64,000 nucleotides of DNA. Source: Heptranchias perlo. Taxonomy: Eukaryota. Shown here one piece after another: positions 1 to 62,519 of this stretch. Position numbers and translations under genes: made by a program. The stretch lies in the NCBI RefSeq assembly GCF_035084215.1, contig NC_090338.1, positions 7,874,001 to 7,938,000 of the forward strand. Direction: 5' to 3'. The notes under the pieces were generated by a model that saw only the letters and a program-made list of their open reading frames with translations, was not told where the DNA came from and did no database searches. Positions within the stretch are counted from its first letter, which is position 1. Each line of letters starts with the position of its first letter.

Positions 1-70
1 TTTGCGCATTCAGACATTTGCTTTCACTTGCCTAACTCCAAAGCTTTAACAATGTATAAGGTAGATAAGA

Positions 71-632
71 TTCCCCAATGTCTTTCCACCATCTACAAGG
101 CACTAGTCAGGCATGTGATAGAATATTCTCCACTTGCTTGGTTAGGTGCAGCTCCAACAACACTCAAGAAGCTCAACACCATCCAGGACAAAGCAGCCTG
201 CTTGATTGGCGTTCCATCCACCACCTTAAATATTCACCATCTCCACCACTGGCACACCGTGGCTGCAGTGTGTAACATCTATAAGTTGCACTGCAGCAAC
301 TTGCCAAGCCTTCTTCAACAGCACCTCCCAAACCCGCAACCTCTACCACCTGGAAGGACAAGGGCAGCAGGCGCATGGGAACAACACCACCTGCACGTTC
401 CCCTCCAAGTCACACACCATCCTGACTTGGAAACATATTGCCGTTTCTTCATCGTCGCTGGATCAAAATCCTGGAACTCCCTACTTAACAGCACTGTGGG
501 AGAACCTTCACCTCATGGACTGCAGCGGTTCAAGAAGGCGACACATCACCACCTCCTCAAGGGTAATTAGGGATGGGCAATAAATGCTGGCCTTGCCAGC
601 GATGCCCACATCCCATGAATGAATAAAAAAAA
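71..632 (+). mobile_element. 5'-truncated copy of the CR1-group (Zenon-like) LINE 'family Z', 3' end with poly(A)
   Basis: ORF2 C-terminus (...TIQDKAACLIG...HHHLLKGN*), 3' hairpin GCTGGC-CTT-GCCAGC, AATAAA and A-tail; same family as 11923-15128. Confidence 0.85.
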
Positions 633-635
633 GAA

Positions 636-915
636 TGGAGGAATCAAGAACCGGAGACATCATCTTAAAATTAGAGCCAGGCCATTTAGGAGTGAAATCA
701 AGAAATGCTTTTTCACACAAAGGGTAGTGGAGATCTGGAACTCTCCCAAAAGTCTGTGGACAATTGGAGCTTTCAAGACTGAGATTGGTAGATTTTTGTT
801 GGGCAAGGGTATCAAGCAATATGGAGCACAGGCAGGTATATGGAGTTGAGGTGCAGGTAAGCCATGATCTAATTGAACGGTGGAGCAGGCTGCAGGGGCT
901 GAGTGACCTCCTCTG
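636..915 (+). mobile_element. Canonical CR1 LINE 3' fragment
   Basis: Encodes RARPFRSEIKKCFFTQRVVEIWN...FKTEIGRFL, the CR1 ORF2 C-terminus, followed by the CR1 3'UTR. Confidence 0.8.
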
Positions 916-1346
916 GTTATTATGTATAAGATGCAGCAAGTGTGCATTTGTGCTAAATTTGTTTGAGTTGACTCCCATTATCATTATATGTGTGATTAAA
1001 TTGATTTCCAGATACAGACATTGAACTGTGTTTATCTCTGTTTCCACTTATTAGTAGGAGGGAAAAAATTCTATCGCATTTTCTTCTGCTGCGGGGCATT
1101 GAAAATATTTCCACACAGTGAAGTGGCCGATCACCTGCATCCATTGAATTTCCTTATATCTTCAACAGCACAGTAGCAAATGCAGTCCATGTAATTTCCT
1201 TTCCAGAGTGAATACTATCAGCAGGAAGGATTGTCCTTTTAGTTCATTTTTTTTTGTGTGATGCTGTCTGTAAAAATGTTTATTTTATGATCGTGTTTAA
1301 ACGATGATAATTTCAGAATACAACACCATAGCCGGTACTCTAAATA

Positions 1347-11922: not shown

Positions 11923-14900
11923 GGGCACAGTAGCATAGTGGTTATGTTACTGGTGCTCGTAATCTGGAGTATATGAGTTCAAATCTCTGCTTCTGGTAGC
12001 TGGGGAATTTGATTTCAGTTAATTAAATAAAATCTGGAATAAAAAGCTAGTATTAGTAAAAGTGACCATGAAACTACCAGATTGATGTAAAAACCCATCT
12101 GGTTCACTAATGTCTTTTAGGGAAGGAAACCTGTCTTCCTTACCTAGTCTGGCCTATATGTGACTCCAGACCAACAGCAATGTGGTTGATTCTGAAATGG
12201 CCTGGCAAGCCACTCAGTTGTACAATCTCGCTACAAAAAGACATAATAAGAATAAAACCGCACGGACCACTAGGCACTGGACATGACAAAGGCAAACCAA
12301 GCCCAGTTGACCCTGCAAAGTCCTCCTCACTAACATCCGGGGAATTGTGCCAAAATTGGGAGAGCTGTCCCACAGACTAGTCAAGCAATAGCCTGACATA
12401 ACCATAGTCACAGGATCGTACCTTTCAGTCAATGTCCCAGACTCCTCCATCACCATTCCTGGGTATGTACGGTCCCATCGGCAGGACAGACCCACCAAAG
12501 GTGGTATACAGTCAGGAGGGAGTCCTCAACATTGACTCCGGACCCCATGAAGTCTTATGGCATTAGGTCAAAAATTGGCAAGCAAACCTCCTGTTGATTA
12601 TCACCTACCACCATCTCTCAGCTGATGAATCAGTACTCCTCCATGTTGAGCACCACTTGGAGGAAGCACTAAGGGTAGCAAGGGCACAGAATGTACTCTG
12701 GATTGGGTGCTTCAATGTCCATCACCAAAAATGGCTCGGTAGCACCACTGCTGGCCGAGTTTTTAAGGACATAGCTGACAGGCAGGGCTGCAGCAGGTGG
12801 TGAGAGAACCAACACGAGGGAAAAACCTACTTGACCTCGACCTCACCAATCTACCTGTCACAGATGCATCTGTCCATGACAGTATTGGTAGGAGTGACCA
12901 CCGCATAGTGCTTGTGGAGAAGAAGTCCCGTCTTCACACTGAGGACACTCAGTTGTGTGGCACTACCACCATGCTAAATCGGATAGATTCAGAACAGATC
13001 TAGCAGCTCCAAATTGGACATCCCATGAGGCACTGTGAGCCATCAGCAGCAGCAGAACTGTATTCCACCACAATCTGTAACCTCATGGCCCGGTGTATCC
13101 CTCACTCTATCATTACCATCAAGGCAAGGGATCAACCCTGGTTCAATGAGGAATGTAGAACAGCATGCCAGGAGAAGCACCAGGCAAACCTAAAAATGAG
13201 GTGCCAACCTGGTAAAGCTATAACATGCATGCTAAGCAGCGGAAGCAGCATGCTATAGACAGAGCTAAACAATCCCACAACCAACGGATCAGATCAAAGT
13301 TCTGCAGTCCTGCCACATCCAGTGGACAATTAAACAACTAACGGGAGGAGGAGACTCCGTGAACATCTCCATCCTCAATGATGGCTGAGCCCAGCACGTG
13401 AGTGCAAAAGACATGGCTGAGGCATTTGCAACTATCTTCAACCAGAAGTGCCGAGTGGATGATGCATCTCAGCCTTCTCCCGAGATCCCCACCATCACAG
13501 AAGCCAGTCTTCAGTCAATTTGATTCACTCCACGTGATATCAAGAAATGGCTGAGTGCACTGGATACAGCAAAGGCTATGGGCCCCGACAACATCCCGGC
13601 TGTAGTGCTGAAGACTTGTGCTTCAGAACTAGCTGTGCCTTTGCCAAGCTGTTCTAGTACAGATACAATACTGGCTTCTACTCGACAAAGTAGAAAATTG
13701 CCTAGGTATGTCCTGTCCACAAAAAGCAGGACAAATCCAATCCAGGTAATTACTGCCCCATCAGTCTACTCTCAATCATCAGCAAAGTGATGGAAGGTGT
13801 TGTCGACAGTGCTATCAAGCAGCACTTACTTACCAATAACCTGCTCACCGATGCTCAGTTCGGGTTCCGCCAGGACCACCCGGCTCCAGAGCTCATTACA
13901 GCCTTGGTCCAAACATGGACAAAAGAGCTGAATTCCAGAGGTGAGGTGAGAGTGACTGCCCTTGACATCAAGACAGCATTTGACCGAGTGTGGCATCAAG
14001 GAGCCCTCGTATAGCTGAAGTCAATGGGAATCAGGGGGAAAACTCTCCAGTGGCTGGAGTCATACCTAGCACAAAGGAAGATGGTAGTGGCTGTTTGGAG
14101 GCCAATCATCTCAGCCCCAGGACATTGCTGCAGGTGTTCCTCAGGGCAGTGTCTTCGGCCCAACTATCTTCAGCTGCTTCATCAATGACCTTCCCTCCAT
14201 CATAAGGTCAGAAGTGGGGATGTTCGCTGATAATTGAACATCATTCAGTTCCATTCGCAATCCCTCAGATAATGGAGCAGTCCGTGCCCACATGCAGCGA
14301 GACCTGGACAACATCCAGGCTTGGGCTGATAAGTGGCAAGTAACATTCACACTAGACAAGTGCCAGGCAATGACCAACTCCAACAAGAGAGAGTCTAATC
14401 ACCTCCCTTTGACATTCAACTGCATTACCATCGCCGAATCTCCCAACATCAACATCCTGGAGGTCACCATTGACCAGAAACTTAACTGGACCAGCCACAT
14501 AAATACTGTGGCTATAAGAGCAGGTCAGAGGCTTTGAATTCTGCGGCAAGTGACTCACCTCCTGACTCCCCAAAGCCTTTCCACCATTTACAAGGCACAA
14601 GTCAGGAGTATGATGGAATGCTTTCCATTGGCCTGGACGAGGCTAGCTCCAACAACATTCAAGAAGCTCGACACCATCCAGGACAAAGCAGGCCACTTGA
14701 TTGGTACCCCATCCACCACCCTAAACATTCACTCCCTCCTCCACCGGTGCACGTGGCTGCAGTGTGCACCATCCACAGGATGCACTGCAGCAACTCGCCA
14801 AGGCTTCTTTGACAGCACCTCCCAAACCCGTGACCTCTACCACCTAGAAGGACAAGGACAGAAGGCGCATGGGAACAACACCACCTGCACGTTCCCCTCC

Positions 14901-15128
14901 GAGTCACACACCATCCCGACTTGGAAATATATCACCGTTCCTTCATCGTCGCTGAGTCAAAATCCTGGAACTCCCTTCCTAACAGCACTGTGGGAGAACC
15001 ATCACCACACAGACTGCAGCTGTTCAAGAAGGTGGCTCACCACCACCTTCTCAAGGGCAATTAGGGATGGGCAATAAATGTCGGCCTCGCCAGCGACGCC
15101 CACATCCCATGAATGAATTAGAAAAAAT
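11923..15128 (+). mobile_element. Essentially full-length (~3.2 kb) ORF1-less CR1-group LINE 'family Z': tRNA-like 5' head, APE endonuclease, RT, 3' hairpin, A-rich tail; this copy is inactivated by stops and frameshifts
   Basis: A box TAGCATAGTGG 11931-11941 and B box GTTCAAATC 11977-11985. EN motifs (FNVHH, LLDLDLTN, GRSDH) and RT motifs (QFGFR, ALDIKTAFDRVWH, PQGSV, MFAD). Ends GGGCAATAAATG...CCCATGAATGAA. Confidence 0.88.
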
Positions 15129-16204: not shown

Positions 16205-16640
16205 TTTTTAAAATTTGTTCTCAGGATGCAGATGCTGCTGGCAAGGCCGCATTTTTTGACCACACCTAGTTTCCCTGAGAAGGTGGTGATGGGACTTCTT
16301 TTTGGTCACTGCAATGATGGTGCTCCCACTATAGTGTCAAGTTGGGAATTCCAGGATATCGATCCAGCGACAATGAAGGAATGGCGATATATGTCGATGT
16401 CAGGATGGTGTGTGAATTGGAGGGGAACTTGGAGGCGATGGTGATCCCACAACATTGCTGCTCTTGTTCTTCATGGTGGTAGAGGTCACAGGGGAGGGAG
16501 GTGCTGTTGAAGTAAGTGCGGCGGGTTGTTACAATGCATCCCGTAGATATTACATGCTGCACCACAGCATGCTGGTAATGGAGTAGGTGGATACTGAGTC
16601 CAGGGGTTGATGCACTGATCAAAGGAACTGCTGATTTGAA
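16205..16640 (-). mobile_element. Older, diverged family-Z LINE 3' fragment
   Basis: Reverse complement resembles 14700-15120 (GAGAAGGTGGTG, CCAGGAT..GA.CCAGCGAC.ATGAAGGAA). Confidence 0.7.
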
Positions 16641-17019: not shown

Positions 17020-17545
17020 TTTTTTTCAAAAAATATACTTTATTCATAAAATTTGCAGCAATACATACAATACAGTTGTCATATCACATTCCAAACGTAC
17101 ACAATACAGATTATATAATTTGCAGGTTACATCAAGTACAGTTCAATGAACACATTGGACATAATTACAGTTCATGACACTCTAGGGTGCCTCATTGCAT
17201 TACACTCAATACACATTTTTGATAACAGGTACGTTACAGATTCTTTACAGGTTCATTACAGATTCATTACGGTTACATTACATCAATTAAAATTTTACAT
17301 TCTGCCCGAGGGGGTTTTTCCCTGATTGCAGCCCCTCGGTATACAATGGCGGGAAGACTCTAAACGGTTGCCTTTCCCCACAGAGCCTTTGCGGCGGCCG
17401 CACCCATCCTCAGTGCGTCCCTCAGCACGTAGTCCTGGACCTTGGAATGTGCCAGTCTACAACACTCGGTCGAGGACAGCTCCTTGTACTGGAAGACCAG
17501 CAAGTTTCGGGCAGACCAAAGGGCATCTTTCACTGAGTTGATGGT
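17020..17545 (-). mobile_element. 5'-truncated Tx1/L1-clade LINE with a 12-bp TSD
   Basis: Minus-strand ORF end INSVKDALWSARNLLVF...RLAHSKVQDYVLRDAL...WGKATV*. T-run at 17019 (the poly-A tail). TSD CTTCACACATCT at 17008-17019 and 17546-17557. Confidence 0.85.
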
Positions 17546-18436
17546 CTTCACACATCTAATATACTTATTTTTTTGACTTGTGGAACTTGTGTTTGAAAGC
17601 AGATCAGGCTGATGGGATAGAATTCCCCTCTCACTTTTGTCCTGGCTGTAAGGGTGTTGCAGTAAAGGGGTATGGACATCCTGAACGTAGTTCCCAGGCA
17701 GCATGAGTCTATAAGTCAAAACACAAAATGAAATTGGCATTAAGCCACACTGGGGTCAAAAAATTCTCCAGTACTTTGTGTAATGACATCGTAAATGAAT
17801 TCATGAGCTGCTCTGCTTGGTGTCTCCAGTGAAATCGTAAATGCGTTCCTTTAGAATGTATTTGCTAGAAACACCCAACAGAGGAAGTCTTTAAGGATAC
17901 ATTTATGATGTTACTGCACGTAGTGACCACAAGAAATCTTGAAGGAAAAAAAGAAGTTGCATCTATACATTTTATTCCATTGTTGGACAGAGTGGAGGGA
18001 ATCATTAACCTCCATCCAACCCATTGTATACAATATCTGATCTGGATGCCGATGGAAGTGTTCCATTCCAAGCACTCGCATCACTTGCATAAACACAAAA
18101 GTCGATTTTTTTTTAGAGTCCAAAGGAAAGTGAATCGTGACGGTGGGGTTACGGCTGTGATATGAACGGTTCCCTGTGAAAGTGTCCTCAGACTGTGAAC
18201 ACTAAGACACAATGCAGGCCACATTGTGTAAATCTGTAGTGAATGGTTTACTGCAGTGGGCTTCAAGTGCAGTCAATATATTTCTATAATAGTCGCTGGT
18301 TATTGTTGCTATATTTTTAAAACCGCTTCAGTACAATGAAACACCAGTGCTAAGCCATGTTAAATGTGCTGATTTAAACCTTTAAAAGGAAAGCAATCTG
18401 CAAAAGCAAAGGAACACAATAGCAAACTGCCATGTC

Positions 18437-18785
18437 TTTTTTTGATTCATTTTCAGGATGTGGGGGTTGCTGGCAAGGCCGGCGTTTTATTGCCCGATCC
18501 GAGTTGCCCTGAACTGAGTGGCTTAAGAGGGCAGTTAAGAGCTACGTTGGTGTGGGAGTGGAGCCACATTTAGGCCAGACAGGGAAGGGGGCAGGTTTCC
18601 CTCCCCAAAGGACATCAGTGAACCAGTTGTGTTTTATATAACAATCCAACAGCTTCATGGTCACTTTTACTGATACCAACTTTTCATTTCCAGATTTTGA
18701 AAACTAAATTCAAATTCTCAAGCTGCCACGGTGGGATTTGGAACTCACATTGTCTGGATTATTAGTCCAGAAATACAACCATGCC
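18437..18785 (-). mobile_element. tRNA-headed SINE equal to the 5' ~300 nt plus 3' ~65 nt of LINE family Z
   Basis: Reverse complement aligns to 11930-12220 (head, GTGACCATGAA, CTGGTTCACT, CCACTCAGTT) and then jumps to the LINE 3' end (AGGGCAA...GGGCAATAAA...CTTGCCAGC...CACATCC). Confidence 0.8.
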
Positions 18786-19699
18786 CTTTCTCTTAAATAC
18801 ACGTTGCCAAGAAATCTCGAGAGACAGGGGATATTTAGGTGAAAGATTTAGTTCATCCAATTTAGAGTATTTTGAGATACATTACTTGTTGTACGTAAAA
18901 CCTCCGTGCTTGAATTTTCAACGGGGGATCCAGACAATTACTGAAACTAGTACTTTGAAAATCCCGCTGCGTTCGTCTTTGTCCAATGTCAGTTGTTCAC
19001 AATGACTAGCGACCGTTTGGAAAATCTGTTCCTTGTCCCCAGGGGAGGGTCACTATAAACTATCCACTGAAACAATTAACGCCAGCTATTGTTCGAACAA
19101 ATGACGGACGCTTCTCGGCAAAGTTAAGCATCAGCCCCTCATTGATAAACGAAGCAACAGATTTGGCGAAGTGAGATTGGCGATTTAACTGTCAGAAGAG
19201 CCCCGATTGTCACGGTAGGATTCTCTGAATGGAAGAAAAACGCATTCATCGGAATCAGAAGCTTCAACTGCCTGTAAAAGGCGAGGCCAACAGAGTACTT
19301 TGTAAAACATTGAACTCCATCGTTCCCCGTTGTTGCAAAACAAATTAATCTAAAAACCAACGATCTTACTCTGAACAGATCGATATTGTTCATATACTTA
19401 ATTGACCTCACCCTGATTGTGTTGAATTAGCTCATTTTTAAAAAAAGGTGTGATTCCCAGTGTGCAGCCTCCTCCGTGTTAGTTGACACCAACGTCAAAA
19501 ATGATGGATCTCACTTGAAGCAAGTTTGTTTTTAAAGTAAGAAAACAGTTAAAAAACTATTAAAAATAACGTTGAACTGTAAACCTGGGTTTGGATTAAT
19601 GCACATATTCTAAACACTTAAGTCATAAAAGTGCTTTTACTAGACTGATAGTTTGGTGAAGTTGGTACATTCTAGTGTATGAATCGTAAATAAATAAGA

Positions 19700-21789: not shown

Positions 21790-22988
21790 TCATTACAGCC
21801 TTGGTCCAAACATGGACAAAAGAGCTGAATTCCAGAGGTGAGGTGAGAATGATTGCCCTTGACATCAAGGCGGCATTTGACTGAGTGTGGCACCAAGGAG
21901 CCCTAGTAAAATTGAAGTCAATGGGAATTAGGGGGAAAACTCTCCAGTGGCTGGAGTCTTACCTAGCACAAAGGAAGATGGTAGTGGTTGTTGGAGGCCA
22001 AGCATCTCAGCCCCAGGGCATTGCTGCAGGAGTTCCTCAGGGCAGTGTCCTAGGCCCAACCATCTTCAGCTGCTTCATCAATGACCTTCCCTCCATCATA
22101 AGGTCAGAAATGGGGATGTTCGCTGATGATTGCACAGTGTACAGTTCCATTCGCAACCCCTCAGATAATGAAGCAGTCCGAGCCCGCATGCAACAAGACC
22201 TGGACAACATCCAGGCTTGGGCTGATAAGTGGCAAGTAACATTCGCGCCAGACAAGTGCCAGGCAATGACCATCTCCATGCAGAGAGAGTCTAACGACCT
22301 CCCCATGACATTCAACGGCATTACCATCGTCGAATCCCCCACCATTAACATCCTGGGGGTCACCATTGACCAGAAACTTAACTGGACTAGCCATATAAAT
22401 ACTGTGGCTACAAGAGCAGGTCAGCGGCTGGGTATTCTGCAGTGAGTGACTCACCTCCTGACTCCCCAAAGCCTTTCCACCATCTACAAGGCACAAGTCA
22501 GGAGTGCAGCTCCGACAACACTCAAGAAGCTCAACACCATCCAGGACAAAGCAGCCCGCTTGATTGGCACCCCATCCACCACCCTAAACATTCACTCCCT
22601 TCACCACTGGCGCACTGTGGCTGCAGTGTGTACCATTCACAGGATGTACTGCACCAACTTGCCAAGGCTTCTTCGATAGCACCTCCCAAACCCCTGACCT
22701 CTACCACTTAGATTGACAAGAGCAGCAGGCACAGGGGAACAACACTACCTGCACGTTCCCCTCCAAGTCACACACCATCCCAACTTGGAAATATATCGCC
22801 GTTCATTCATCGTTGCTGGGTCAAAATCCTGAAACTCCCTTCCTACCAGCACTGTGAGAGAACCTTCACCACACGGACTGCAGCGGTTCAAGAAGGTGGC
22901 TCACCACCACCTTCTCAAGGGCAATTAGGGATGGGCAATAAATGCTGGCCTCGTCAGCGACGCCCACATCCCATGAACAAGTAAAAAA
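21790..22988 (+). mobile_element. Family-Z LINE, 5'-truncated (RT to poly-A), nested in a CR1 tail
   Basis: ORF 21885-22445 with GVPQGSVLGP and MFADD; same 3' end as 11923-15128. Confidence 0.88.
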
Positions 22989-39784: not shown

Positions 39785-41130
39785 ACTATCCCTCCTCATC
39801 CTTCTCAACTTGTCTGCAGCCTTTGACACGGTTGACCGCACCATGCTCCTCCAAAGCCTCTCCTCCGTCATCCAGCTGGGTGGGACTGCACTCGCATGGT
39901 TCCATTCTTATCTATCCAGTCATTGCCAGAGAATCACCTGCAATGTCTTCTCTTCCTGCTCCTGCATCGTTACTCCTGGAGTCCCCCAAGGATCTATCCT
40001 TGGCCCTCTCTTATTTCTCATCTACATGCTGCTCCCTTGGCGATATCATCCGAAAGCACAATGTTAGATTCGCAATTCCACATGTACACTGCGACACCCA
40101 GCTCTACCTCACCACCACCTCTCTTGACCCCTCCACTGTCTCTGATCTGTCACACTGCTTGTCCGAAATCCATGCGCAAAAACTTCATAGAGTCATAGAG
40201 TCATAGAGTTATACGGCACGGATAGAGGCCCTTCGGCCCATCGTGTCCGTGCCGGCCATCAAGCCCTGTCTACTCTAATCCCATATTCCAACTAAATATT
40301 GGGAAGACCGAAGCCATTGTCTTTAGTCCCTGCCACAAACTCCGTTCCCTAGCCACTGACTCCATCCCTCTCCCTGACCACTGTCTGAGGCTGAACCAGA
40401 CCATTCGCAACCTTGGCGTCCTATTTGACCCTGAGATGAGCTTCCGACCACAAATCTGTTCCATCACCAAGACCGCTTACTTCCACATCCATAACATCGT
40501 CCGTCTCTGTCCCTACCTCAGCTCATCTGCTGCTGAAATCCTCATCCATGCCTTTGTTACCTCCAGACTCGACTATTCCAATTCTCTCCTGGCCAGCTTC
40601 CTATCTTCCACCCTCCATAAACTTGAGCTCATCCAAAACTCTGCTGCCTGTATCCTAATTCACACCAAGTCCCATTCTCTCATCATCCCTGTGCTCGCTG
40701 ACCTACATTGGCTCCCGGTCCGGGAAGGTCTCGATTTTAAAATTCTCATTTATGTTTTGAAATCCTTCCATGGCCTCACTCCTCCCTATCTCCCTAACCT
40801 CTTCCAGCCCTACAACCCTCCGAGATCTCTGCACTCCTCCAATTCTTCCTTCTTGCACATCCCTGATTTCAATCGCTCCACCATTGGCGGCCGTGCCTTC
40901 AGCTGCCTAGGCCCTAAGCTCTAGAATTCCCTCCCTAAACCTCGCTACCTCTCTCCTCTCCTTTAAGACGCTCCTTAAAACCTATCTCTTTGACCAAGCT
41001 TTTGGTCACCTGTCCTAATATTTCCTTATGTGGCTCGGTGTCAAATTTTGTTTGATAACACTCCTGTGAGGTGCCTTGGGATGTTTTACTATGTTAAAGG
41101 CGCTTTATAAATGCAAGTAGTTGTTGTTAT
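39785..41130 (+). mobile_element. L2 LINE RT-to-3' fragment with a short CR1 tail inserted at ~40185-40290
   Basis: Encodes SAAFDTVD..GVPQGSILGPLLFLIY and IHAFVTSRLDYSNSLL..LHWLPV; ends in ATGCAAGTAGTTGTTG. Confidence 0.88.
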
Positions 41131-46601: not shown

Positions 46602-46631
46602 CGAATCTGATCTTGAATTCCAAGACATCCA

Positions 46632-47638
46632 CAGGACATTGCTGCAGGAGTTCCTCAGGGCAGTGTCCTAGGCCCAACCATCTTCAGCTGCTTCATCAAT
46701 GACCTTCCCTTCATCATAAGGTCAGAAATGGGGATGTTCACTGATGATTGCACAGTGTTCAGTTCCATTCTCAGCCCCTCAAATAATGAAGAAGTCCGAG
46801 CCCGCATGCGGCAAGACCTGGACAACATCCAGGCTTGGGCTGATAAGTGGCAAGTAACATTCACGCCAGACAATTGCCAGGCAATGACCATCTCCAACAA
46901 GAGAGAGTTTAACCACCTCCCCTTGACATTCAACGGCATTACCATTACCGAATCCCCCACCATCAACATCCTGGGGTCACCATTGACCAGAAACTTAACT
47001 GGACCAGCCACATAAATACTGTGGCTACAAGAGCAAGTCAGAGGCTGGGTATTCTGCGGCGAGTGACTCACCTCCTGACTTCCCCAAAGCCTTTCCACCA
47101 TCTACAAGGCACAAGTCAGCAGTGTGATGGAATACTCTCCACTTGCCTGGATGAGTGCAGCTCCAACAACACTCAAGTAGCTCGACACCATCCAGGACAA
47201 AGCAGCCCGCTTGATTGGCACCCCATCCACCACCCTAAACATTCACTCCCTTCACCACCGGTGCACTGTGGCTGCAGTGTGTACCATCCACAGGATGCAT
47301 TGCAGCAACTCGCCAAGGCTTCTTCGACAGCACCTCCCAAACCCGCGACCTCTCCCACCTAGAAGGACAAGAGCAGCAGGCACATGGGAACAACACCACC
47401 TGCACGTTCCCCTTCAAGTCACACACCTCCGGACTTGGAAATATATTGATGTTCCTTCATCGTCACTGGGTCAAAATCCTGGAACTCCCTTCCAAACAGC
47501 ACTGTGGGAGAACCTTCACTACACGGACTGCAGCGGTTCAAGAAGGCGGCTCACCACCACCTTTTCAAGGGCAATTAGGGATGGGTAATAAATGGCGGCG
47601 TCGCCAGCGACGCCCACATCCCATGAACGAATAAAAAG
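46632..47638 (+). mobile_element. Family-Z LINE, 5'-truncated
   Basis: GVPQGSV/MFTDD region through to the CCCATGAACGAATAAAA end. Confidence 0.88.
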
Positions 47639-50809: not shown

Positions 50810-53118
50810 AAAAAAAGGAAGAGATTAGCAAAAGTAAACGTGGGTCTCTTATAGGCAGAGACAGGAGAAATTATAATGGGGAATAAGGAAATGGCAGAGA
50901 CGTTAAACAAATATTTTATATCTGTCTTCACAGTAGAAGACACAAAAAACTTACCGGAAATAGTGGGGAACCACGGTTCTAATGAGAGTGAGGAACTTAA
51001 AATAATTAAGATTAGTAAAGAAAAAGTACTGGAGAAATTAATGGGACTAAAAGCCGACAAATCCCCTGGACCTGATGGCCTACATCCTAAGGTTTTAAAA
51101 GAGGTGACTGCAGAGATAGTGGATACATTGGTTTTGATCTTCCAGAATTCCCTAGATTCTAGAACGTGCGTCGTGGATTGGAAAGTAGCAAATGTAAGCC
51201 CGCTATTCAAGAAAGGAGGGAGAGAGAAAGCAGGGAACTGTAGGCCAGTTAGCCAGATATTAATAGTAGGGAAAATGCTAGAATCTATTATTAAGGATGT
51301 AGTAACAGGGCACTTAGAACATCATAATATGATTAGGCAGAGTCAAAATAGTTTTATGAAAGGGAAATCGTGTTTGACAAATCTATTGGAGTTTTTTGAG
51401 GGTGTAAATAGCAGGATAGATAAGGGGGAACCGGGTGGATGTAGTATGTTTGGATTTTCAAAAGGCTTTCGATAAGATGCCACACAAGAGGTTGTTACAC
51501 AAGATTAGGGCTTATGGGATTGGGGGTAATATATTAACATGGATTGAGGATTGGTTAATGGACAGAAAACAGTAGGAATAAACGGGTCATTTTCGGGTTG
51601 GCAGATTGTAACTGGTGGGGTGCCTCAAGGGTCAGTGCTATGGGCTCCAGCTGTTTACAATATATATCAATGACTTAGATGAAGGGACCGAGTGTAATGG
51701 ATCCAAGTTTGCTGACGATACAAAGCTAGGTGGGAAAGTAAGCTGTGAGGAGGATGCAAAGAGGCTGCAAAGGGATATACACAGGTTAAGTGAGTGGGCA
51801 AGAAGGTGGCAGATGGAGTATAATGTGGGGAAATATGAAATTTTCCACTTTGGTAGGAAGAATAGAAAAGCAGAATATTTTTTAAAACTTGAGAGACTAA
51901 GAAATGTTGGGAGTCAGAGGGATTTGGGTGTCCTTGTACACGAATCACAGAAAGTTAACCTGCAGGTACAGCAAGCAATTAGGAAGGCAAATGGTATGTT
52001 AGCCTTTATTGCAAGGTGGTTGGAGTATAAGAGTAAGGACTTCTTGCTGCAATTATGTAGGGCTCCGGTGAGACCACATCTGGAGTACTGTGTACAGTTT
52101 TATTCTCCTTACCTAAGGAAGGATATACTTGCTTTAGAGGGGGTGCTACGAAGGTTCACTAGATTGATTTGTGGGATGAGAGGGTTGTCCTATGAGGAGA
52201 GATTGAGTAGAATAGGCCTATACTCTCTGGAGTTTAGAAGAATGAGAGGCGATCTCATTGAAATGTATGAAATTCTAAGAGGGCTTGACCGGGTAGATGC
52301 TGAGACGTTGAGTCCCCAGGCTGGAGATTCTAGAACTAGCGGTCACAGTCTCAAAATAAGGGATTGGCCATTTAGGATCGAGATGAGGAAAAATTTCTTC
52401 CCTCAGAGAACATAGGAACATAGGAACAGGAGTAGGCCATTCAGCCCCTCGTGCCTACTCCGCCATTTGATAAGATCACGGCTGATCTGTGATCTAACTC
52501 CATATACCTGCCTTTGGCCCATATCCCTTAATACCTTTGGTTGCCAAAAAGCTATATATTTCAGATTTAAATTTAGCAATTGAGCTAGTATCAATTGCCG
52601 TTTGCAGAAGAGAGTTCCAAACTTCTACCACCCTTTATGTGTAGAAATGTTTTCTAATCTCACTCCTGAAAGGTCTGGCTCTAATTTTTAGACTGTGCCC
52701 CCTACTCCTAAAATCCCCAACCAGCGGAAATAGTTTCTCTCTATCCACCCTATCTGTTCCCCTTAATATCTTATAAACTTCGATCAATTTGTGTAATCTC
52801 TCCTCGTAACTTAACCCTTGAAGTCCGGGTATCATTCTAGTAAACCTACGCTGCACTCCCTCCAAGGCCAATATGTCCTTCCGAAGGTGCGGTGCCCAGA
52901 ACTGCTCACGGTACTCCAGAGGGCTGTGAATGCTTATTCGTTGAGTATATTCAAGACTGAGATCGATAGATTTTTGGACTCGAAGAGAATCAAGGGACAT
53001 GGGAATCGGGCGGGAAAGTGGAGTTGAGGTCGAACATCAGCCGTGATCTGATTGAATGGCGGAACAGGCTTGAGGGGCCCTATGGCCCACTCCTGCTCCT
53101 ATTTCTTATGTTCTTAAG
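50810..53118 (+). mobile_element. CR1 LINE ORF2 (RT) to 3' end, with an antisense CR1 piece inserted at ~52408-52915
   Basis: Encodes KSPGPDGLHP, GKSCLTNLLEFFE, KFADDTKLGG, RPHLEYCVQF; resumes at AGAGGGCTGTG (~52918); TTCTTATG tail. Confidence 0.9.
52408..52915 (-). mobile_element. CR1 3' fragment with internal deletion, nested antisense in CR1
   Basis: GAACATAG tail; minus-strand ORF ..RLHK|LIEVYKILRG skips the LGLYSLE..RGD segment. Confidence 0.75.
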
Positions 53119-53734
53119 TTCTTAATTTAGGTTGTAGGTTTAAGCACAGGAACAGTGCACAAAATTACATACAACTAAATCGAGGGGAAAGATTTCCTTT
53201 GGTTGCCGTCTCTTTTAGAACATGGTTATAATTTCACCAGTAATAGTGATCAGTGGTGATCATTCCACTATGTTTACAATGTTGTTAATACATTTTGACT
53301 AGAGGAGATGTCTCCCTCATATACTGTGAAGGAGAGTCATCATCTTTTAAAATCAAACTGTTTCAAGAGCTATGATTAAAGCAAATATTCCTTTGCTTTC
53401 TTCTGTTAATTTATTCAGTACTTTTTGTTTAAGCAGCGAGTTCTGGTGATATCACCAGGATTACAAGCCTGAAGAATTGATTGAGCCTGACCTGTGTTGA
53501 AGCAACTATATTAACAGATATAGTTCATGTCAAAGCACTGACTCTCTCTCCACTGATGTTAATTGAGCCCCAGACAGTGTTGGCACCGGTACTTGAAGTC
53601 CCACTGATATCGGCAGCTCTCTTTACTTAAACAGATATCAACAGAATATTTGCATTAATGCTATTTCTCTGTAATTATGATAGGTGATAGATCTTCTTGG
53701 AGTGCTTGGGTTGGTACCATTACTACCTTGTTTA

Positions 53735-53985
53735 ACATAAGAACATAAGAAATAGGAGCCATACGGTCCCCCAAGCCTGCTCCGTCTTTCAATAAGATCA
53801 TGGCTGACCTTCAACCTCAACTCCACTTTCTCGCCTGATCTCCATATTCCTTAATTCCCTTAGAGTTCAAAAATCTATTGCTCTCAGCCTTGAATATACT
53901 CAATGACTGAGCATCCACAGCCCTCTGGGGTGGAGAATGCCAAAGATTTGCAACCCTCTGAGTGAAGAAATTTCTCCTCATCTTA
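53735..53985 (-). mobile_element. CR1 3' fragment
   Basis: ACATAAGA tail; encodes MRRNFFTQRVANLW. Confidence 0.8.
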
Positions 53986-54059
53986 AGATACCACTTATTT
54001 CTACTAGAATGTTCCTTATCAGAGCAGTTGCCAGATTGCATTTTATTTTTTGAACTACA

Positions 54060-54250
54060 AAACCAATAAAATGCTGGAAACGCACAGCTGGCCAGTCAGG
54101 ATCTACAGGGCGAACAAATACAGGTCAGCGTTTTACACAGTGTCCTTCTTCGGAACTGAAGACCGAGAGATAACCAGCGCTTTAATAGAATTGGAAAAAT
54201 GCAGGAGGAGGGGGAGGGAGGGAAGGGGAGGAAGGAAAACATAAGCAAGT
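54060..54250 (-). mobile_element. Penelope-like pLTR remnant
   Basis: AAAATGCTGGAAAC...CCTTCTTCGGAACTG is the reverse of a degenerate C(C/T)GAAGA hammerhead core. Confidence 0.45.
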
Positions 54251-54282
54251 AACAGATACTGCAATTATAAAAGTTCTATGAG

Positions 54283-54720
54283 GAACATTAGGAACAGGAG
54301 TAGACCATTCAGCTCCTCGAGCCTGCTCTGCCATTCAATTAGATCATGGCTGATCGCCACCAAAACTCAATTTACCCGCCTTTGCTCCATATCCCTTGAT
54401 ACCCTTATCTAACAAAAAATTATTGATCTCAGTCCGGAAAGCTCCAATTGACCCTCACTATCCACCACCTTTTCGGGGGAGAGTTCCAAATTTCGACTCT
54501 TGGCATGAAAAAGTGCTTCCTAATTTCGCTCCTCAATGGCCTGGCTCTAAATTTAGATTATGTCCCCTTGTTTTTGATTCCCCCACCAGAGGAAATAATT
54601 CCTCTGTACCGATCCTATCAAATCTTTTTAACATTTTAAACACCTCAATCAGATCACCCCTCAGTGAGGAAACAAGCCAAGTTTATGCAACCTGTCCTCA
54701 TAATTTAATCCTCTAAGCCC
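54283..54720 (-). mobile_element. CR1 3' fragment
   Basis: Same subfamily as 6520-7160. Confidence 0.8.
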
Positions 54721-56934
54721 TTATTGTGTAACATCTGTCCATTGAGAATTTCTTATCTTAAACATAGAAACATAGAAAATGGGAGCTGGAGTAGGCCATT
54801 TGGCCCTTTGAGCCTGCTCCGCCATTCAATATGATCATGGCTGATCCTCTATCTCAATACCATATTCCCGCTCTCTCCCCATATCCCTTGATGCCTTTTG
54901 TGTCTAGAAATTTATCTACCTCATTCTTAAATATATTCAGTGACTTGGCCTCCACAGCCTTCTGTGGTAGAGAATTCCACAGGTTCACCACCCTATAAGT
55001 GAAGAAATTTCTCCTCATCTCAGTCCTAAATGTCCTACCTCATATCCTGAGACTGTGACCCCTCGTTCTGGACCCCCCAGCCAGGGGAAACATCCTCTTT
55101 GCATCCAGTCTATCTAGCCCTGTCAGAATTTTATATGTTTCAATGAGATCCCCTCTCATTCTTCTAAACTCGAGTGAATACAGGCCGAGTCGACTCAATC
55201 TCTCCTCATACGACAGTCCTGCCATCCCAGGGATCAGTCTGGTGAACCTTCGCTGCACTCCCTCTATGGCAAGTATATCCTTTCTTAGGTAAGGTGACCA
55301 AAACAGCACACAATACTCCAGGTGTGGTCTCAACAAGGCCCTGTATAACTGCAGTAAGACATCTTTGCTCCTGTACTCAAATCCTCTTGCAATGAAGGCC
55401 AACATACCATTTGCCTTACTAACTGCTTGCTGCACCCGCATGTTGGCTTTCAGTGACTGATGTACAAGGACACCCAGGTCTCTTTGTACATCAACATTCC
55501 CCAATCTATCACCATTTAAATAATAACCTGTCTTTCTGTTTTTCCTTCCGAAGTGGAAAGCTTCACATTTATCCACGTTATTCTGCATCTGCCATGTATT
55601 TGCCCACTCACTCAACTTGTCTAAATTGCTTTGAAGCCTCTTTGTATCCTCCTCACAACACACGATCCCACCGAGTTTTGTGTCGTCAAGAAACTTGGAT
55701 ATATTACATTTGGTTCCCTCATCCAAATCATTGATATATGTTGCGAGTTACTGGGGCCCAAGCACTGATCCCTGCGGTACTTCACTAGCCACTGCCTGCT
55801 GCCCCGAAAAAGACCTGTTTATTCCTACACTCTGTTTCCTGTCTGTTAACCAATTTTCAATCCATGCCAGTATATTAACCCCAATCCCATGTGCTTTAAA
55901 TCAGCACAATAACCTCTTACGTGGGACTTTATCAAAGGCCTTCTGAAAATCCAAATACACCACATCCACTGGTTCTCCCTTATCTATTCTACCAGTTACA
56001 TCCTCAAAAAACTCCAGTAGGTTTGTCAAACATGATTTCCCTTTCATAAATCCATGTTGACTTTGTCTAATCCCGTTGATATTTTCTAAGTGTCCTGTTA
56101 TCACATCCTTCATAATAAACTCTAGCATTTTCCCTACTACTGATGTTAGGCTAACCGCTCTATAGTTCCCTGTTTTCTCTCTCCTATTTAAATAGTGGGG
56201 TTACATTTGCCACCCTCCAATCTGCAGGAACTGTTCCATAATCTATAGAATTTTGGAAGATGACAACTAATGCATCCTATTTCCATGGCTACCTCTTTTA
56301 TTTCTCTGGGATGCAGATTATCAAGTCCTGGGGATTTATTGGCTTTCAGTCCCATTAATTTCTCCAGCACTATTTTTTTACGAATACTAATTTCCTTTAA
56401 TTCCTCCTTCTCTCTAGTCCCTTAGTTCCCTAGCATTTCTTGGAAGTTATTTGTGTCCTCTTCTGTCAAGACAGAACCAAAGTATTTGTTTAATTGCTCT
56501 GCAATTTTCTTGTTCCCCATTATAAATTCTCCCGTTTCTGACTGTAAGGGACCTACATTTGTCTTCACTAATCTTTTTCTTTTTACATACTTGTAGAAGC
56601 TTTTACAGTCCACTTTTATGTTCCTTGCAAGTTTACTTTCATAATCCATTTTGGCCCTCTTAATCACTCTCTTGGTCCTTTTTTGCTGAATTCTAAATTG
56701 CTCCCAATCCTCAGGCTTGCTACTTTTTCTGGCAACTTTATATGACTCCTCTTTGGATCTAATACGATCCTGAATTTCTTTTGTTAGCCATGGTTGGGTC
56801 GCATTTCCTTTTGTGTTTTTGCACCAGAAAGGAATGCATAATTGTTGCAATTCATGCATTCGTTCCTTAAATGCAACCATTGCCTATCCACCATCATGCC
56901 TTTTAATGAAGATTCCCAATCTATCGTAGCCAAA

Positions 56935-59900
56935 TTTTTTCTTCTTCATTCATGGGATGTGTGTTGCTGGCAAGGCCAGCATTTATTGCCCATCCCTAAT
57001 TGCCCTTGAGAAGGTGGTGGTGAGCCACCTTCTTGAACCGCTGCAGTCTGTGTGGTGAAGGTTCTCCCACAGTGCTGTTAGGAAGTGAGTTCCAGGATTT
57101 TGACCCGGTGACGATGAAGGAACGACGATATATTTCTAAGTCGCGATGGTGTGTGACTTGGAGGGGAACGTGTAGGTGGTGTTGTTCCCATGTACCTGCT
57201 GCCCTTGTCCTTCTAAGACCATAAGATGGCATAAGAGATAGGAGCAGGAGTAGGCCATTCGTCCCCTCGAGCCTGCTCTGCCATTCAGTGAGATCATGGC
57301 TGATCTGATTTTTACCTCAAATCCACTTTCCCGCCTTTTCCCCATATCCTTTGACTCCCTTGCTGATCAAAAATTTGTCTAACTCAGCCTTGAATGTATT
57401 CAATGACTCAGCCTCCACAGCTTTTTGGGGTAAAGAATTCCAAAGATTCACGACTGTCTGGGAGAAGAAATTCCTCCTCATTTCCGTCTTAAACAGGCGA
57501 GCCCTTATTCTGAGACTATGCCCCCTAGTTTTAGATTCCCTCATGAGGGGTAACATCCTCTCAGCATCTACCCTATCGAGTCCCCTCAGAATCTTGTATG
57601 TTTCAATAAGATCTCCTCTCATTCTTCTAAACTCCAATGAGTATAGACCCAACCTGTTGAATCTTTCCTCATAATACAACCCTTCCATACCCGGAATCGA
57701 CCGAGTGAACCTTCTCTGAACTCCTTCCAATGCAAGTATGTCTTTCCTTAAATAAGGGCACCAGAACTGTATGCAGTACTCCAGGTGTGGTCTCACCAGC
57801 ACCCTGTACAGTTATAGTATGACTTCCCTGCTTTTATACTCCAACCCCCTAGAAATAAAGGCCAATATTCTGTTTGCCTTCCAGATTACCTGCTGCACCT
57901 GTATGTTGACTTTTTGTGTTTCATGTACGAGGACACCCTCTGTACCGCAGCATTTTGTAATATTTCTCCATTCAAATAATATTTTGCTTTTTTATTTTTC
58001 CTCCCAAAGTGGATGACTTCACATTTTCCCACATTATATTCCATCTGCTAAATTTTCGCCCATTCGCTTAACGTGTCAATATCCCTTTGCAGACACTTTG
58101 TGTCCTCATCACAACTTGCTTTTCCACCTATCTTTGTATCATCAGTTAATTTGGCCACAAGACACTCTGTTCCTTCATCCGAGTCATTGATATATTTTGT
58201 AAATAGTTGAGGCCCCAGCAATGAACCCGGCGGCACCCCACTAGTTACAGATTGCCATTTTGAAATTGACCCTTTTATCCCGACTCTTTGTTTTCTGTAA
58301 GTTAGCCAATCCATATCCATCTATTCGAGGTGGAAGAAGCCTTGGCGATTTGCTGCAGTGCATCCTGTGGATGGTACACACTGCAGCCACAGTGCACCGG
58401 TGGTGAAGGGAGTGATTGTTTAGGGTGATGGATGGGGTGCCAAGCAAGCGGGCTGCTTTGTCCTGGATGGTGTCGATCTTCTTGAATGTTATTGGAGCTG
58501 CACTCATCCAGGCAAGTGGAGAGTATTCCATCACACTCCTGACTTTTGCCTTGTAGATGGTGGAAAGGCTTTGGGGAGTCAGGAGGTGAGTCACTCGTCA
58601 CAGAATACCAAGCCTCTAACCTGCTCTTGTAGTCACAGTATTTATATGGCTGGTCCAGTTAAGTTTCTGGTCAATGGTGACCCCCAGGATGTTGATGGTG
58701 GGGGATTCGGCGATGGTAATGCCGTTGAATGTCAAGGGGAGGTGGTTAGACTCTCTCTTGTTGGAGATGGTCATTGCCTGGCAATTGTCTGGCACGAATG
58801 TTACTTGCCACTAATCAGCACAATCCTGGATGTTTTCCTGGTCTTGTTGCATGCTGACGGGTTGCGAATGGAACTGAACACTGTGCAATCATCAGCGAAC
58901 ATCCCCATTTCTGACCTTTTGATGGAAGGAAGGTCATTGATAAAGCAGCTGAAGATGGTTGGGCCTAGGATACTGCCCTGAGGAACTCCTGCAATGATGT
59001 CCTAGGGCTGAGATGATTGGCCTCCAACAACCACTCCCATCTTCCTTTGTGCTATGTATGACTCCAGCCACTGGAGACTTTTCCCTCTGATTCCCATTGA
59101 CTTCAATTTTACTAGGGCTCCTTGGTGCCACACTCGGTCAAATGCTGCCTTGACGTCAAGGGCAGTCACTCTCACCTCACCTCTGGAATTCAGCTCTTTT
59201 GTCCATGTTTGGACCAAGGCTGTAATGAGGTGTGGAGCCGAGTGGTCCTGGCGGAACCCAAACTGAGCATCGGTGAGCAGGATATTGGCGAGTAAGTTCC
59301 GCTTGATAGCACTGTCGACGACACCTTCCATCACTTTGCTGATGATTGAGAGTAGACTGATGGGGCGGGAATTGGCCGGATTGGATTTGTCCTGCTTTTT
59401 GTGGACAGGACATACCTGGGCAATTTTTCACATTGTCGGTTAGATGCCAGTGTTGTAGCTGTACTGGAACAGTTTGGCTAGAGGTGCGGCTAGTTCTGGA
59501 GCACAAGTCTTCAGCACTACAGCTGGGATGTTGTCGGGGCCCATTGCCTTTGCTATATCCAGTGTACTCAGCCATTTCTTGATATCACGTGGAATGAATC
59601 GAATTCACTGAGGACTGGCTGCGGTGATAGTGGGGATATCGGGAGGAGGCCGCGATGTATCATCCACTCGGCACTTCTGGCTGAAGATGGTTGCAAACAC
59701 TTCTGCCTTGTCTCTTGCACTCACGTGCTGGACTCCGCCATCATTGAGGATGGGGATGTTTACAGAGCCTCCTCCTCCCGTTAGTTGTTTGATCGTCCAC
59801 CACCATTCACGACTGGATGTGGCAGGATTGCAGAGCTTTGATCTGATCCATTGTTTGTGGAATCACTTAGCTCTGTCTATAGCATGTTGCTTCCGCTGTT

Positions 59901-61065
59901 TAGCTTGCATGTAGTCCTGAGTTGTAGCTTCACCAGGTTTGCACCTCATTTTTAGGTACGCCTTGTGCTGCTCCTGGCATGCTTTTCCACACTCCTCATT
60001 GAACCAGGGTTGATCCCCTGGCTTGTTGGTAATGGTAGAGTGAGGAATATACCGGGCCATGAGGTTACAGATTGTGCTGGAATACAATTCTGCTGATGGC
60101 CCATGGCGCCTCATGGATGCCCAATTTTGAGCTGCTGGATCTGTTCTGAATCTATCCCATTTAGCACGGTGATCGTGCCACACAACATGTTGGATGGTGT
60201 CCTCAGTGTGAAGACGGGACTTCGTCTCCACGAGGACTGTGTGGTGGTCACTCCTACCAGTACTGTCATGGACAGATGCTTCTGCGACAGGTGGATTGGT
60301 GAGGACGAGGTCAAGTAGGTTTTTCCCTCATATTGGTTCGCTCACTACCTGCTGCAGGCCCAGTCTGGCAGCCATGTCCTTCAGGACTCGGCCAGCTTGG
60401 TCAGTAGTCGTGCTACCAAGCCACTCTTGGTGATGGACATTTAAGTCCCCCACCCAGAGAACGTTCTGTGCCCTTGCTACCCTCAGTGCTTCCTCCAAGT
60501 GGTGCTCAACATGGAGGAGAACTGATTCATCATCTGAGGGAGGATGGTAGGTGGTAATCAGCAGGAAGTTTCCTTGCCCATGTTTGACCTGATGCCATGA
60601 GATTTCATGGGGTCCGGAATCAATGTTGAGGACTTCCAGGGCCACTCCCTCCTGACTGAATATCACTGTATCGCCACCTTTGGAGGGTCGTCCTGCTGGT
60701 GGGACAGGACGTACCCAGGGATGGTGATGGAAGAGTCTGGAATGTTGGCTGAAAGGTATGATTCTGTGAGTATGGCTATGTCAGGCTGTTTCTTGACTAG
60801 TCTGTGGGACAGCTCTCCCAATTTTGGCACAAGTTCCCAGATTTTAGTGAGGAGGACTTTGCAGGGTCGACTGGGCTTGGTTTGCATTTGTCGTGTCCGG
60901 TGTCTAGTGGTCCGATGCCAGGTGGTCCTTCCGGTTTTATTCTTATTCTGACTTTTTTAACGAGATTTTACAACTGAGTGGCTTGCTAGTCCATTTCAGA
61001 GAGCAATTAAGAATCAACCACATTGCTGTGGGTCTGGAGTCACATATAGGCCAGACTGGGTAAGG
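56935..61065 (-). mobile_element. Near full-length family-Z LINE (3' part 56935-57214; rest 58325-61065), lacking only the tRNA head and proximal 5'UTR
   Basis: Colinear with 12135-15120, including the 5'UTR block (CTGGCCTATATGTGACTCCAGAC..CCACTCAGTTGT), EN (PDIAILTESYL, GDLNVHH) and RT. Confidence 0.88.
57219..58322 (-). mobile_element. CR1 RT-to-3' fragment nested inside the family-Z LINE
   Basis: Encodes LVRPHLEYCIQFW..LGLYSLEFRRMRGDL and GVPPGSLLGP; CATAAGA tail. Confidence 0.85.
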
Positions 61066-62519
61066 GCTCACTCCTCATACCTTTGTAGTTTCCTTTGTTT
61101 AGATTTAGGACCCTAGTTTCGGATTGGACTACTTCACTTTCCATCTTATTGAAGAATTCTGTTATGTTCTGGTCACTCTTTCCTAAAGGACCCCGCACAA
61201 CAAGATTATTAATTAACCCTTCCCATTGCACAATACCCAATCTGGGATAGCCTGTTCCCTGGTTGGCTCCTCAATGTACTGGTCTAAAAAAACCATCTCA
61301 TACACATTCCAGGTATTCATCCTCCACAGTATTATTGCTAATTTGGTTTGGCCAGTCTATATCAGATTAAAGTCACCCATGATTACTGTAGTACCCTTGT
61401 TTCATGCATCTCTAATTTCCTGTTTGATCCCATCCCCTACATTACCATTACTGTTGGAGGCCTATCGACAACTCCCACCAATGTTTTCTGCCCCTTGGTG
61501 CTTCTTAACTCCACCCAGACTGATTCTAAATCTTGATTTTCTGAGCCAATATCCGTTCTCGCTATTGCTCTGATTTCATCCTTTACTAACAACACCACCC
61601 CACCTCCTTTTCCTTTTTGCCTGTCCTTCCTAAATATCGAATACCCTTGGATATTCAGCTCCCAGCCTTGGTCACCCTGCAGCCATGTCTCTGTAATTGC
61701 TATTGTATCATATCTGTTTACATCTCTTTGCACTGTTAATTCATCTACCTTATTACGAATGCTTCATGCATTCAGATTCAGTGCCTTTAGATATGTATTT
61801 TTAACATTTTTAGACATCTTAATATTTTTTTGTACTGTGGCCGGATTTGTCTTATTACCTTCTTTTTTCTTACCCGGACCCTATTTGTTGTCTTTTGTTT
61901 GTGCACCCTGTCCCTTCCTGACACAATCTGGTTATCCTTACCCCAATCACTTTCCTGCACTGCTTCTTTGTCTTTTCTCTTTACCATCTAGATTTCTTTC
62001 CACCGGGATCCCCCCCACTTAATTAGTTTAAAGCCCTATCTACCTCCCTAGCTATTCGATTCGCTAGAACTCTAGTCCCAGCATGGTTCAGGTGTAGTCC
62101 GTCCCAACGAAACAGCTCTCTCTTTCCCCAGTACTGGTTCCAGTGCCCCATGAATCGAAACCCACTTCTCTCACACCAATCTTTGAGCCACACATTCATC
62201 TCCCTGATCCTATTGACCCTATGCCAATTTGCTCGTGGCTCAGGTAATAATCCAGAGATTATTACCTTTGTGGTTCTGCTTTTTTAATTTCGTCCCTTGC
62301 TGCTCAAACTCTCCCAGCAGAACCTTTTTCTTAGTCCTACCTATGTCGTTGGTACCTACATGGACCACGACAACTGGATCCTTCCCCTCCCACTCTAATT
62401 TCTTATCTAACAATCTCCTGCTTTTTGTTAATTTACCATTTTGTGATTTCAGCCTGTTATTTGGTTGTGCTTTTCACATGCCTTTTTCTGATTCTATTAT
62501 CTCTTGTTTTCATTCAGTG

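Follow-up and report, generated by a model that had tools for sequence, protein, structure and literature searches.

Why should 2.7 kb of decayed retrotransposon hold not a single run of four thymines in its sense strand? The question is raised by a 64,000-nucleotide window of the 3.25-Gb genome of the shark Heptranchias perlo (assembly GCF_035084215.1, contig NC_090338.1, forward-strand positions 7,874,001 to 7,938,000; coordinates below count from the first letter of this window), where a minus-strand copy of a long interspersed nuclear element (LINE) family, here called Z, lacks such runs. The initial annotation took the coding sequence to have been purged of terminators, so that RNA polymerase III (Pol III) could read the whole element. 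The deficit becomes significant once T runs of three or more (T3) and degenerate terminators are counted along with runs of four or more (T4), and its specificity is threefold, for T, for the sense strand and for family Z; the Pol III cause is the inferred part of that claim. Judged from sequence, Pol III transcription of Z in one form or another is likely and, with somewhat less assurance, Z is probably an autonomous LINE transcribed by Pol III.

Read on the minus strand, positions 58325-61065 (2741 bp, T 0.205) contain no T4 and six T3 runs, beside 17 A4, 9 C4 and 4 G4 runs, which bears out the earlier count of no T4 and more than ten A4 runs. For this copy alone, base shuffling expects 3.9 T4 (P for none, 0.017) and 18.9 T3, and none of 5000 shuffles was as poor in T3. 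The remainder of the same copy beyond a nested 1.1-kb CR1 piece (57215-56933) is also free of both T4 and T3. The plus-strand copy at 11923-15128 does have the two T4 runs reported for it, at 12115-12118 and 12760-12764, and both are indeed peculiar to it: among 207 distinct aligned pieces, the first recurs only in one old short interspersed nuclear element (SINE) copy and the second in none. The CR1 element at 50810-53118, put forward as a comparison with about ten T4 runs, has 13 of them, but it is richer in T (0.268) and thus an unmatched control. Moreover, the A and B boxes invoked alongside the minus copy are not its own, as it is 5'-truncated from element nt 254.

The promoter-like anatomy is that of the full-length elements. 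Among 56 loci examined, which were the best matches of similarity searches and thus favour young copies, 47 are full-length Z elements of ~3.33 kb with 96-98.6% identity to copy L007. They begin with GGGTACGG, the start lying within the first 3 nt in 41 of the 47, and end with GAACGAAT followed by an A-tail. In 45 of these copies the head carries an A box at +9 and, after a 53-nt gap, a B box at +73, and no other part of the head varies as little as these two boxes (0.012 and 0.004; elsewhere in the head 0.026-0.057). This is the type-2 Pol III layout, with an A box near +9, a B box 30-60 nt further and a fixed 5' end. The pair is absent at eight same-genome control loci (where the 5' ends of CR1 and Tx1A are incomplete) and in 57 foreign upstream regions, and 651 kb of control DNA yielded a single instance. 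A T-run terminator of its own stands right at the 3' end in only two of the 47 copies, and the first T4 downstream of the others lies in the flank, at a median distance of ~200 bp; Alu also relies on the first T4 in flanking DNA. In the 29 copies that begin at nt 1, the preceding base is C in 15 and G in only 3, and the build-up of extra G that a cap might leave is absent at the 5' junctions.

Behind a 351-nt leader, and without an ORF1 (first open reading frame, ORF), lies a single frame of 973 codons from stop to stop in intact copies, encoding an endonuclease (EN) and a reverse transcriptase (RT; PF03372, PF14529 and PF00078) with GDFN, SDH and FADD motifs, and at least 958 codons are open in 18 of the 47 full-length copies. 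Variants shared among copies are mostly synonymous (nonsynonymous to synonymous, 6:9 and 11:21), whereas rare ones are not (955:392 and 1197:470), thus the master lineages have been under purifying selection. With EN and RT in one frame, an A-tail, 5'-truncated copies and this selection, Z has the features of an autonomous LINE with an apurinic/apyrimidinic (APE)-type endonuclease, and the family is abundant and recently active. It has the A/B head of a SINE2, but it is neither short nor non-coding, and it lacks the hallmarks of a canonical CR1, namely ORF1 before ORF2 and an RT in the CR1 branch; it is not sister to the CR1 of its own genome. In an older Z subfamily (74-77% identical), the same ORF follows another head of the A/B type. 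Target-site duplications are unsupported for Z, since 31 of the 47 copies have none of at least 5 bp, and there is none at the insertion at 56933-61065.

Across the family, T4 is absent from 44 of 47 full-length copies, in which A4, C4 and G4 runs number ~20, 11 and 6 per copy. The more diverged the pieces, the more T4 they hold per 3.33 kb: 0.06 (88 pieces), 0.3 (58), 0.9 (18) and 3.25 (43 pieces, a class that takes in SINE copies and a stray CR1 match). The runs that do occur are spread out, and no single place has one in more than 4 of 136 LINE pieces. In none of three age classes is a T4 carried by most copies; a consensus with such runs, which the initial annotation had named as refuting, is thus not what the copies give. 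The antisense strand is undepleted (20 T4, 53 T3).

The purge becomes significant with shorter runs. The Z ORF holds 5 T3 runs against 12.2 under synonymous codon permutation (P 0.001), in which A3 (40/40.0), C3 (40/40.6) and G3 (31/34.0) are at expectation. By ratio, TTT is the most depleted of the 64 trinucleotides; with dinucleotides fixed it occurs 7 times against 14.3 (P 0.004), and across nulls that hold amino acids, codon usage or dinucleotides constant, P for its deficit is 0.001-0.016. Synonymous T is used at 5 of 59 sites beside two or more T and at 144 of 472 beside none (P 1.8e-4), a drop that is absent in Tx1A (19/107 vs 63/365), Tx1B (38/161 vs 98/578) and CR1 (54/98 vs 148/330). 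Codon choice for phenylalanine (Phe), which had been proposed as a check, leans the same way with TTT in 3 of 19 codons and falls short of significance (P 0.08 against other NNY codons). Strong terminators (T4+, T3VT2 and T2VT3; classes as defined in the relevant section of PMC3141230) number 0 against 5.5 (P 0.002) and all terminator classes 4 against 13.0 (P 0.0007), both by base shuffle, whereas their A, C and G analogues, and the terminator classes in four Tx1 windows of T content 0.18-0.21, are at expectation. Strong terminators are absent in 43 of the 47 full-length copies, and each copy has 3-6 weak ones. In keeping with the Pol III reading, six of the seven TTT that remain in Z are isolated, a class reported as nearly inactive in PMC3141230.

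Controls from the same genome were three young families with long RT frames, namely CR1 (T 0.24; 11 T4 and 45 T3 per ORF2), Tx1B (T 0.205; 6 and 36 in 1319 codons) and Tx1A (T 0.204; 2 and 19 in 933 codons), all of them at or above codon expectation for T3; the L2 family stood outside the ORF tests, with a 450-codon frame at none of 20 loci. Foreign controls were 143 LINE ORFs from 160 loci, 17 without a clean frame of at least 300 codons over the RT having been left out, and most stem from AT-rich hosts and are a poor match for Z. Against these, Z has the lowest observed-to-expected (o/e) ratio for T3 (0.41; next 0.69, median 0.97) and also the fewest T3 per kb. The expectation that LINEs without the head would be rich in T4 holds for most of them, and fails for a Tx1-like family with 2-3 per ORF2 and for L217 with one.

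In the full Pol III model, TFIIIC would bind the A and B boxes of the head, and Pol III would start at the common 5' end, read 3.3 kb and stop at the first flanking T run. Master copies that gained an internal terminator would lose full-length RNA, leaving a sense strand without T4 in which TTT is avoided. The uncapped RNA would be translated from a non-AUG start beside the last hairpin of a SINE-like body, the protein would reverse-transcribe its own RNA without ORF1, and internal deletions would yield SINEs. Retrotransposition of Pol III RNAs without ORF1 is described in the pertinent part of PMC2666806.

Several observations weigh against this model. The absence of T4 is by itself borderline evidence: since the copies share a master, T4 has to be tested as one master, which makes a weak test, and P for T4=0 ranges over seven nulls from 0.010 (base shuffle of the element) to 0.20 (dinucleotide, ORF), with 0.083 (dinucleotide, element), 0.09 (codon permutation) and 0.033 (codon permutation in which Phe follows the general NNY rate) in between. 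All Z subfamilies are one ancestry, a single lineage. The AAAA-free stretch of the plus strand (57373-61285) includes ~1.2 kb of flanking CR1 DNA, thus T4-free stretches of about 1 kb arise outside family Z and are not unique to it. Tx1A is nearly as poor in T4 as Z (only 2 in 4.5 kb). A foreign ORF, L278 (3440-5473), has one T4 where 8.4 are expected and no A/B pair in 9 kb, and T4 is lacking in three short control ORFs; L217, the single relative in the clade that is represented by DNA, has one T4 in 953 codons, with 15 T3 and 2.2% Phe. Low Phe (1.95% in Z) was accordingly rejected as a Pol III sign, since several clade relatives, L217 included, are also low. The degenerate classes do not reach significance when codons are permuted (4-of-5 T, 3 vs 6.4, P 0.08; 5-of-6 T, 0 vs 1.8, P 0.16). 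About two thirds of 30 old, decayed SINE copies have T4, which in many of them lies at a single T3 site following the head. The head itself is not recognized as a tRNA by Rfam or ARAGORN, and relaxed ARAGORN gave only noise on control loci; divergent SINE heads often escape tRNA covariance models. LINEs without ORF1 that RNA polymerase II (Pol II) transcribes exist, such as ZfL2-2 and Bov-B. Pol III RNAs lack a cap and are not normally translated, as stated in the section of PMC2666806 that deals with them. Finally, human Pol III is not stopped by a T3 standing alone (terminator section of PMC3141230). TTT avoidance must thus mean avoidance of weak stops or of one-step T4 precursors, which we infer additionally.

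Part of these points would equally serve an account by chance and composition, in which Z, poor in T (20%) and in Phe, goes back to one master that by accident had no T runs. Codon-preserving nulls expect only ~2 T4 in the Z ORF (P 0.09-0.11), so that a count of zero comes close to what composition alone would give, the outcome that the initial annotation had named as fatal, without outright reaching it; moreover, the copies are not independent, and several statistics were tried. Nevertheless, chance is very improbable, as the TTT deficit outlasts the amino-acid, codon-usage and dinucleotide nulls, ranks first among trinucleotides and makes Z extreme against both the 143 foreign ORFs and the three same-genome families. 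The older subfamily repeats it: a class of 30 older pieces has no majority T4 and one T3 against 5.8 in 954 columns, which were projected on copy L032 and are thus biased toward it, and its majority differs at 122 of them.

Mutation does not seem to be the cause. In dead Z copies, changes to T occur at 3.2, 3.6, 2.8 and 2.4 per 1000 beside 0, 1, 2 and 3 or more T, and T4-making changes amount to 9 events at 43 sites. Dead copies thus gain T runs at a normal rate; mutation supplies the runs, and that active lineages have not retained them is a sign of selection there. As an observation apart, T in TpA, above all in CtA, is hypermutable in Z copies (35 transversions per 1000 at CtA; for example, at element nt 331, 414 and 524), with a strand bias in which the Z sense strand has ~2.5 times the mirror rate, while CR1 is near symmetric.

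Selection on the RNA could also act without Pol III. Z could be a Pol II LINE with a captured SINE as its 5' untranslated region, in which U runs are avoided through RNA decay, RT slippage, innate sensing or the element's own endonuclease target. LINEs are described as Pol II elements in the portions of PMC10886601 and PMC5786205 that treat them, TT is generally low in Z (o/e 0.80), as are TTA and TAT, and the inactivity of isolated T3 also suits this view. It is nevertheless unlikely. AATAAA/ATTAAA occur 7 times against 2.0 expected, so that poly(A) signals are unpurged; splice-acceptor-like motifs and pyrimidine tracts are not depleted; and the TA o/e of 0.64 is no lower than in the Tx1 controls (0.48-0.64). 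These undepleted signals, together with the normal TA and the normal A, C and G homopolymers, argue against splicing, polyadenylation, a UU/UA nuclease and general slippage. The same pressures would be expected on the CR1 and Tx1 elements of the genome, yet no deficit is seen there, and a captured leader would leave unexplained why the A and B boxes vary least within the head.

The first in-frame ATG of the Z frame is at residue 250. Measured from a GCT immediately behind the leader, the start of the endonuclease lies a whole number of codons away in 83 of 90 copies and in 32 of the 39 non-modal copies; the corresponding counts for two stretches of the leader are 11 of 43 and 1 of 11. Each of the five lengths that occur in at least three copies is in frame, as are two copies ~75% identical to L032; subfamily copies are not independent, and short repeats in the N-terminal region may favour in-frame lengths. 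The frame is thus kept throughout an ATG-less extension, and translation likely starts without AUG directly behind the leader. The predicted hairpin there has a loop, CU-AGC-AA, that could pair with the in-frame GCT. It shows no covariation, no compensatory changes are seen in its stem at 60974..60999, its fold is unremarkable (z -1.3) and its second loop base varies, so that a start like that of an intergenic region internal ribosome entry site (IGR-IRES) is only a lead, by analogy. The variable base was also considered as an RNA-modification mark, which was rejected since CtA sites are hypermutable generally. A wider proposal is rather doubtful: that Z has its RNA made by Pol III and its protein made from that same uncapped RNA, with the SINE body serving as a ribosome-entry element whose anticodon-like hairpin would pair, in the manner of dicistrovirus IGR-IRESs, with the first in-frame GCU, and with Deu-SINEs as internal deletions of such LINEs. 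If true, it would explain the conservation of that body across deuterostomes; the body of Z and its SINEs is presumably the Deu domain, which it resembles.

Translation of an uncapped RNA would be unnecessary if there were two tracks, with Pol III making the RNA that is copied and the protein coming in trans from capped Pol II host read-through transcripts. The many SINE-like deletions with scattered junctions suggest a loose cis preference, as this would require. However, the purifying selection on the master ORF and the long frame still open in 18 of 47 full-length copies fit cis action, and the ATG-less start would still be unexplained, which makes the two-track arrangement distinctly unlikely.

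The SINEs tie in with the full Pol III model from another side. Thirty old SINE copies have the head, body and tail of Z; in 28 of them the 5' part ends at nt 324-355 and the 3' part starts at 3223-3276, and many similar joints occur in contigs of four sequencing runs; no match to an older-type junction pattern occurs in G000. Scattered breakpoints of this kind fit repeated internal deletion of the LINE as the probable origin of the SINEs, the alternative being that the LINE took up a SINE head. The tRNA-headed Deu-SINEs SacSINE1 and LmeSINE1 resemble the SINE in the window in having a tRNA head, a conserved body and a LINE-type tail, as far as described in the corresponding sections of PMC5499810 and PMC3747384. 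There, however, SINE and partner LINE (L2-2_CM or a CR1-4_DR-like LINE) share the tail only, as SacSINE1 does with L2-2_CM (PMC5499810), whereas Z also has the head and body; the comparison of Z with SacSINE1 and L2-2_CM is one of published descriptions. Bipartite RTE and Vingi derivatives are also SINEs made of LINE 5' and 3' parts after internal deletion, but in the passages concerned (PMC5786205, PMC7245038) a small-RNA head was added to the ends of a Pol II LINE, whereas Z is a coding LINE already headed. RTE-1_DAn and elements related to it are likewise autonomous-type LINEs with a tRNA-like sequence; they belong to the RTE clade and are mentioned in passing, in a passage of PMC5786205 that makes no polymerase or T-run claim.

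Among proteins, the closest named ones are from sharks, and whale-shark proteins are sister to Z in a quick tree. In the same tree Z forms one clade (support 99) with single-ORF LINEs of amphioxus and other invertebrates (P0010, P0149, P0145, P0146 and L217), its closest proteins at 35-50% identity, ~960 aa long and often low in Phe. P0145, P0146 and L217 differ from Z in having an ATG before the endonuclease, and L217 keeps its 15 T3 at the same T content. The canonical shark CR1 of the same genome, presumably of the HER1 type, shares with Z an APE endonuclease, an RT and the lack of a clear target-site duplication; it differs in its RT branch (27% protein identity) and its T runs, and no A/B pair was found in the CR1 parts examined. 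R2 and the dicistrovirus IGR-IRES combine uncapped RNA with a non-AUG start beside a structured leader, similar to what is proposed for Z, but the R2 RNA comes from Pol I and is released by a ribozyme, and the pseudoknot of the IGR-IRES has no demonstrated counterpart in Z. No relatives of Z were found in viral contigs or in a single-protein metagenome scan. Part of Z was found in 23 of 24 listed sequencing runs from 8 studies, as contigs that are silent on expression, strand and 5' ends, and one contig of organism G spans the Z body and the start of the endonuclease.

In the literature, the rule is that LINEs are transcribed by Pol II and SINEs by Pol III, and that Pol III RNAs are non-coding (PMC10886601 and PMC2666806, in their relevant parts). 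No description of a Pol III LINE was found in a search that left subscription papers and Repbase outside. If true, a coding Pol III unit of 3.3 kb would break both halves of this rule and would need a cap- and AUG-independent start; moreover, it would offer a direct test of the purpose of the conserved SINE body and of SINEs as ORF-deleted LINEs. Intact young Z copies exist, which brings experimental tests within reach.

Table 1. Family Z features and the nested CR1 fragment in the 64,000-nucleotide window (percentages are identity to the young copy L032).
Feature	Position	Strand	Basis or remark
Z LINE, 5'-truncated decayed copy, element nt 254-3022	58330..61065	-	93%; no sense T4
Last predicted hairpin of SINE-like body, 7-nt loop CTAGCAA, just upstream of open frame	60974..60999	-	predicted stem
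APE-type endonuclease region (approximate), frameshift near 60680	60237..60845	-	PF03372/PF14529 on L032, tblastn mapping
Reverse transcriptase region (approximate), frameshift near 58855	58675..59395	-	PF00078 on L032, tblastn
CR1 3' fragment nested in Z copy, not Z	57216..58329	-	T 0.247, 1 T4, 15 T3
3' end and A-tail of same Z copy, element nt 3054-3326	56933..57215	-	
Full-length decayed Z copy	11923..15128	+	89%; two copy-specific T4+ runs
A box TAGCATAGTGG	11931..11941	+	sequence; A+B pair in 45/47 full-length copies
B box GTTCAAATC	11977..11985	+	sequence; A+B pair in 45/47 full-length copies
Single EN-RT reading frame, broken in this copy	12224..15064	+	
SINE with head, body and 3' tail of Z, without ORF	18435..18790	-	
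5'-truncated Z copy, element nt 2102-3323	21790..22978	+	
5'-truncated Z copy, element nt 2320-3327	46626..47632	+	
5'-truncated Z copy, element nt 2772-3327	69..624	+	
3' end of much older Z subfamily	16213..16567	-	73%

The surroundings of the minus-strand copy (window 56005-62000) form a nested stack, in which an old CR1 holds the Z copy and this in turn a second CR1 fragment; the frame of the host CR1 is unbroken across the whole Z insertion, GMRSE at 61066 joining LATIDW at 56932. More CR1 pieces lie at 50810-56590, a young Tx1-like 3' end (98% to other copies) at 17040-17560 and an old L2-like copy with a short insertion at 39790-41130. Elsewhere, L077 has a Z copy inside another Z copy, and L347 has Z copies inverted around a full-length one. 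A Tx1-like LINE with an intact ORF2 of 1311-1326 codons stands in ~7-kb tandem arrays (L455-L458, L473 and L474; G000:C38, C725 and C1626), which suggests a sequence-specific target. Beside a young CR1, L334:37-1710 (G000:C12) holds a 557-codon frame without a Pfam match that looks retroviral-envelope-like by eye, with what we take to be the envelope pattern of a basic cleavage-like site, a hydrophobic stretch and a heptad-like region. Finally, among L135-L294, many metagenome contigs, metagenome-assembled genomes included, are labelled as bacteria or archaea and hold intact animal-type LINE ORFs, which are likely host DNA.

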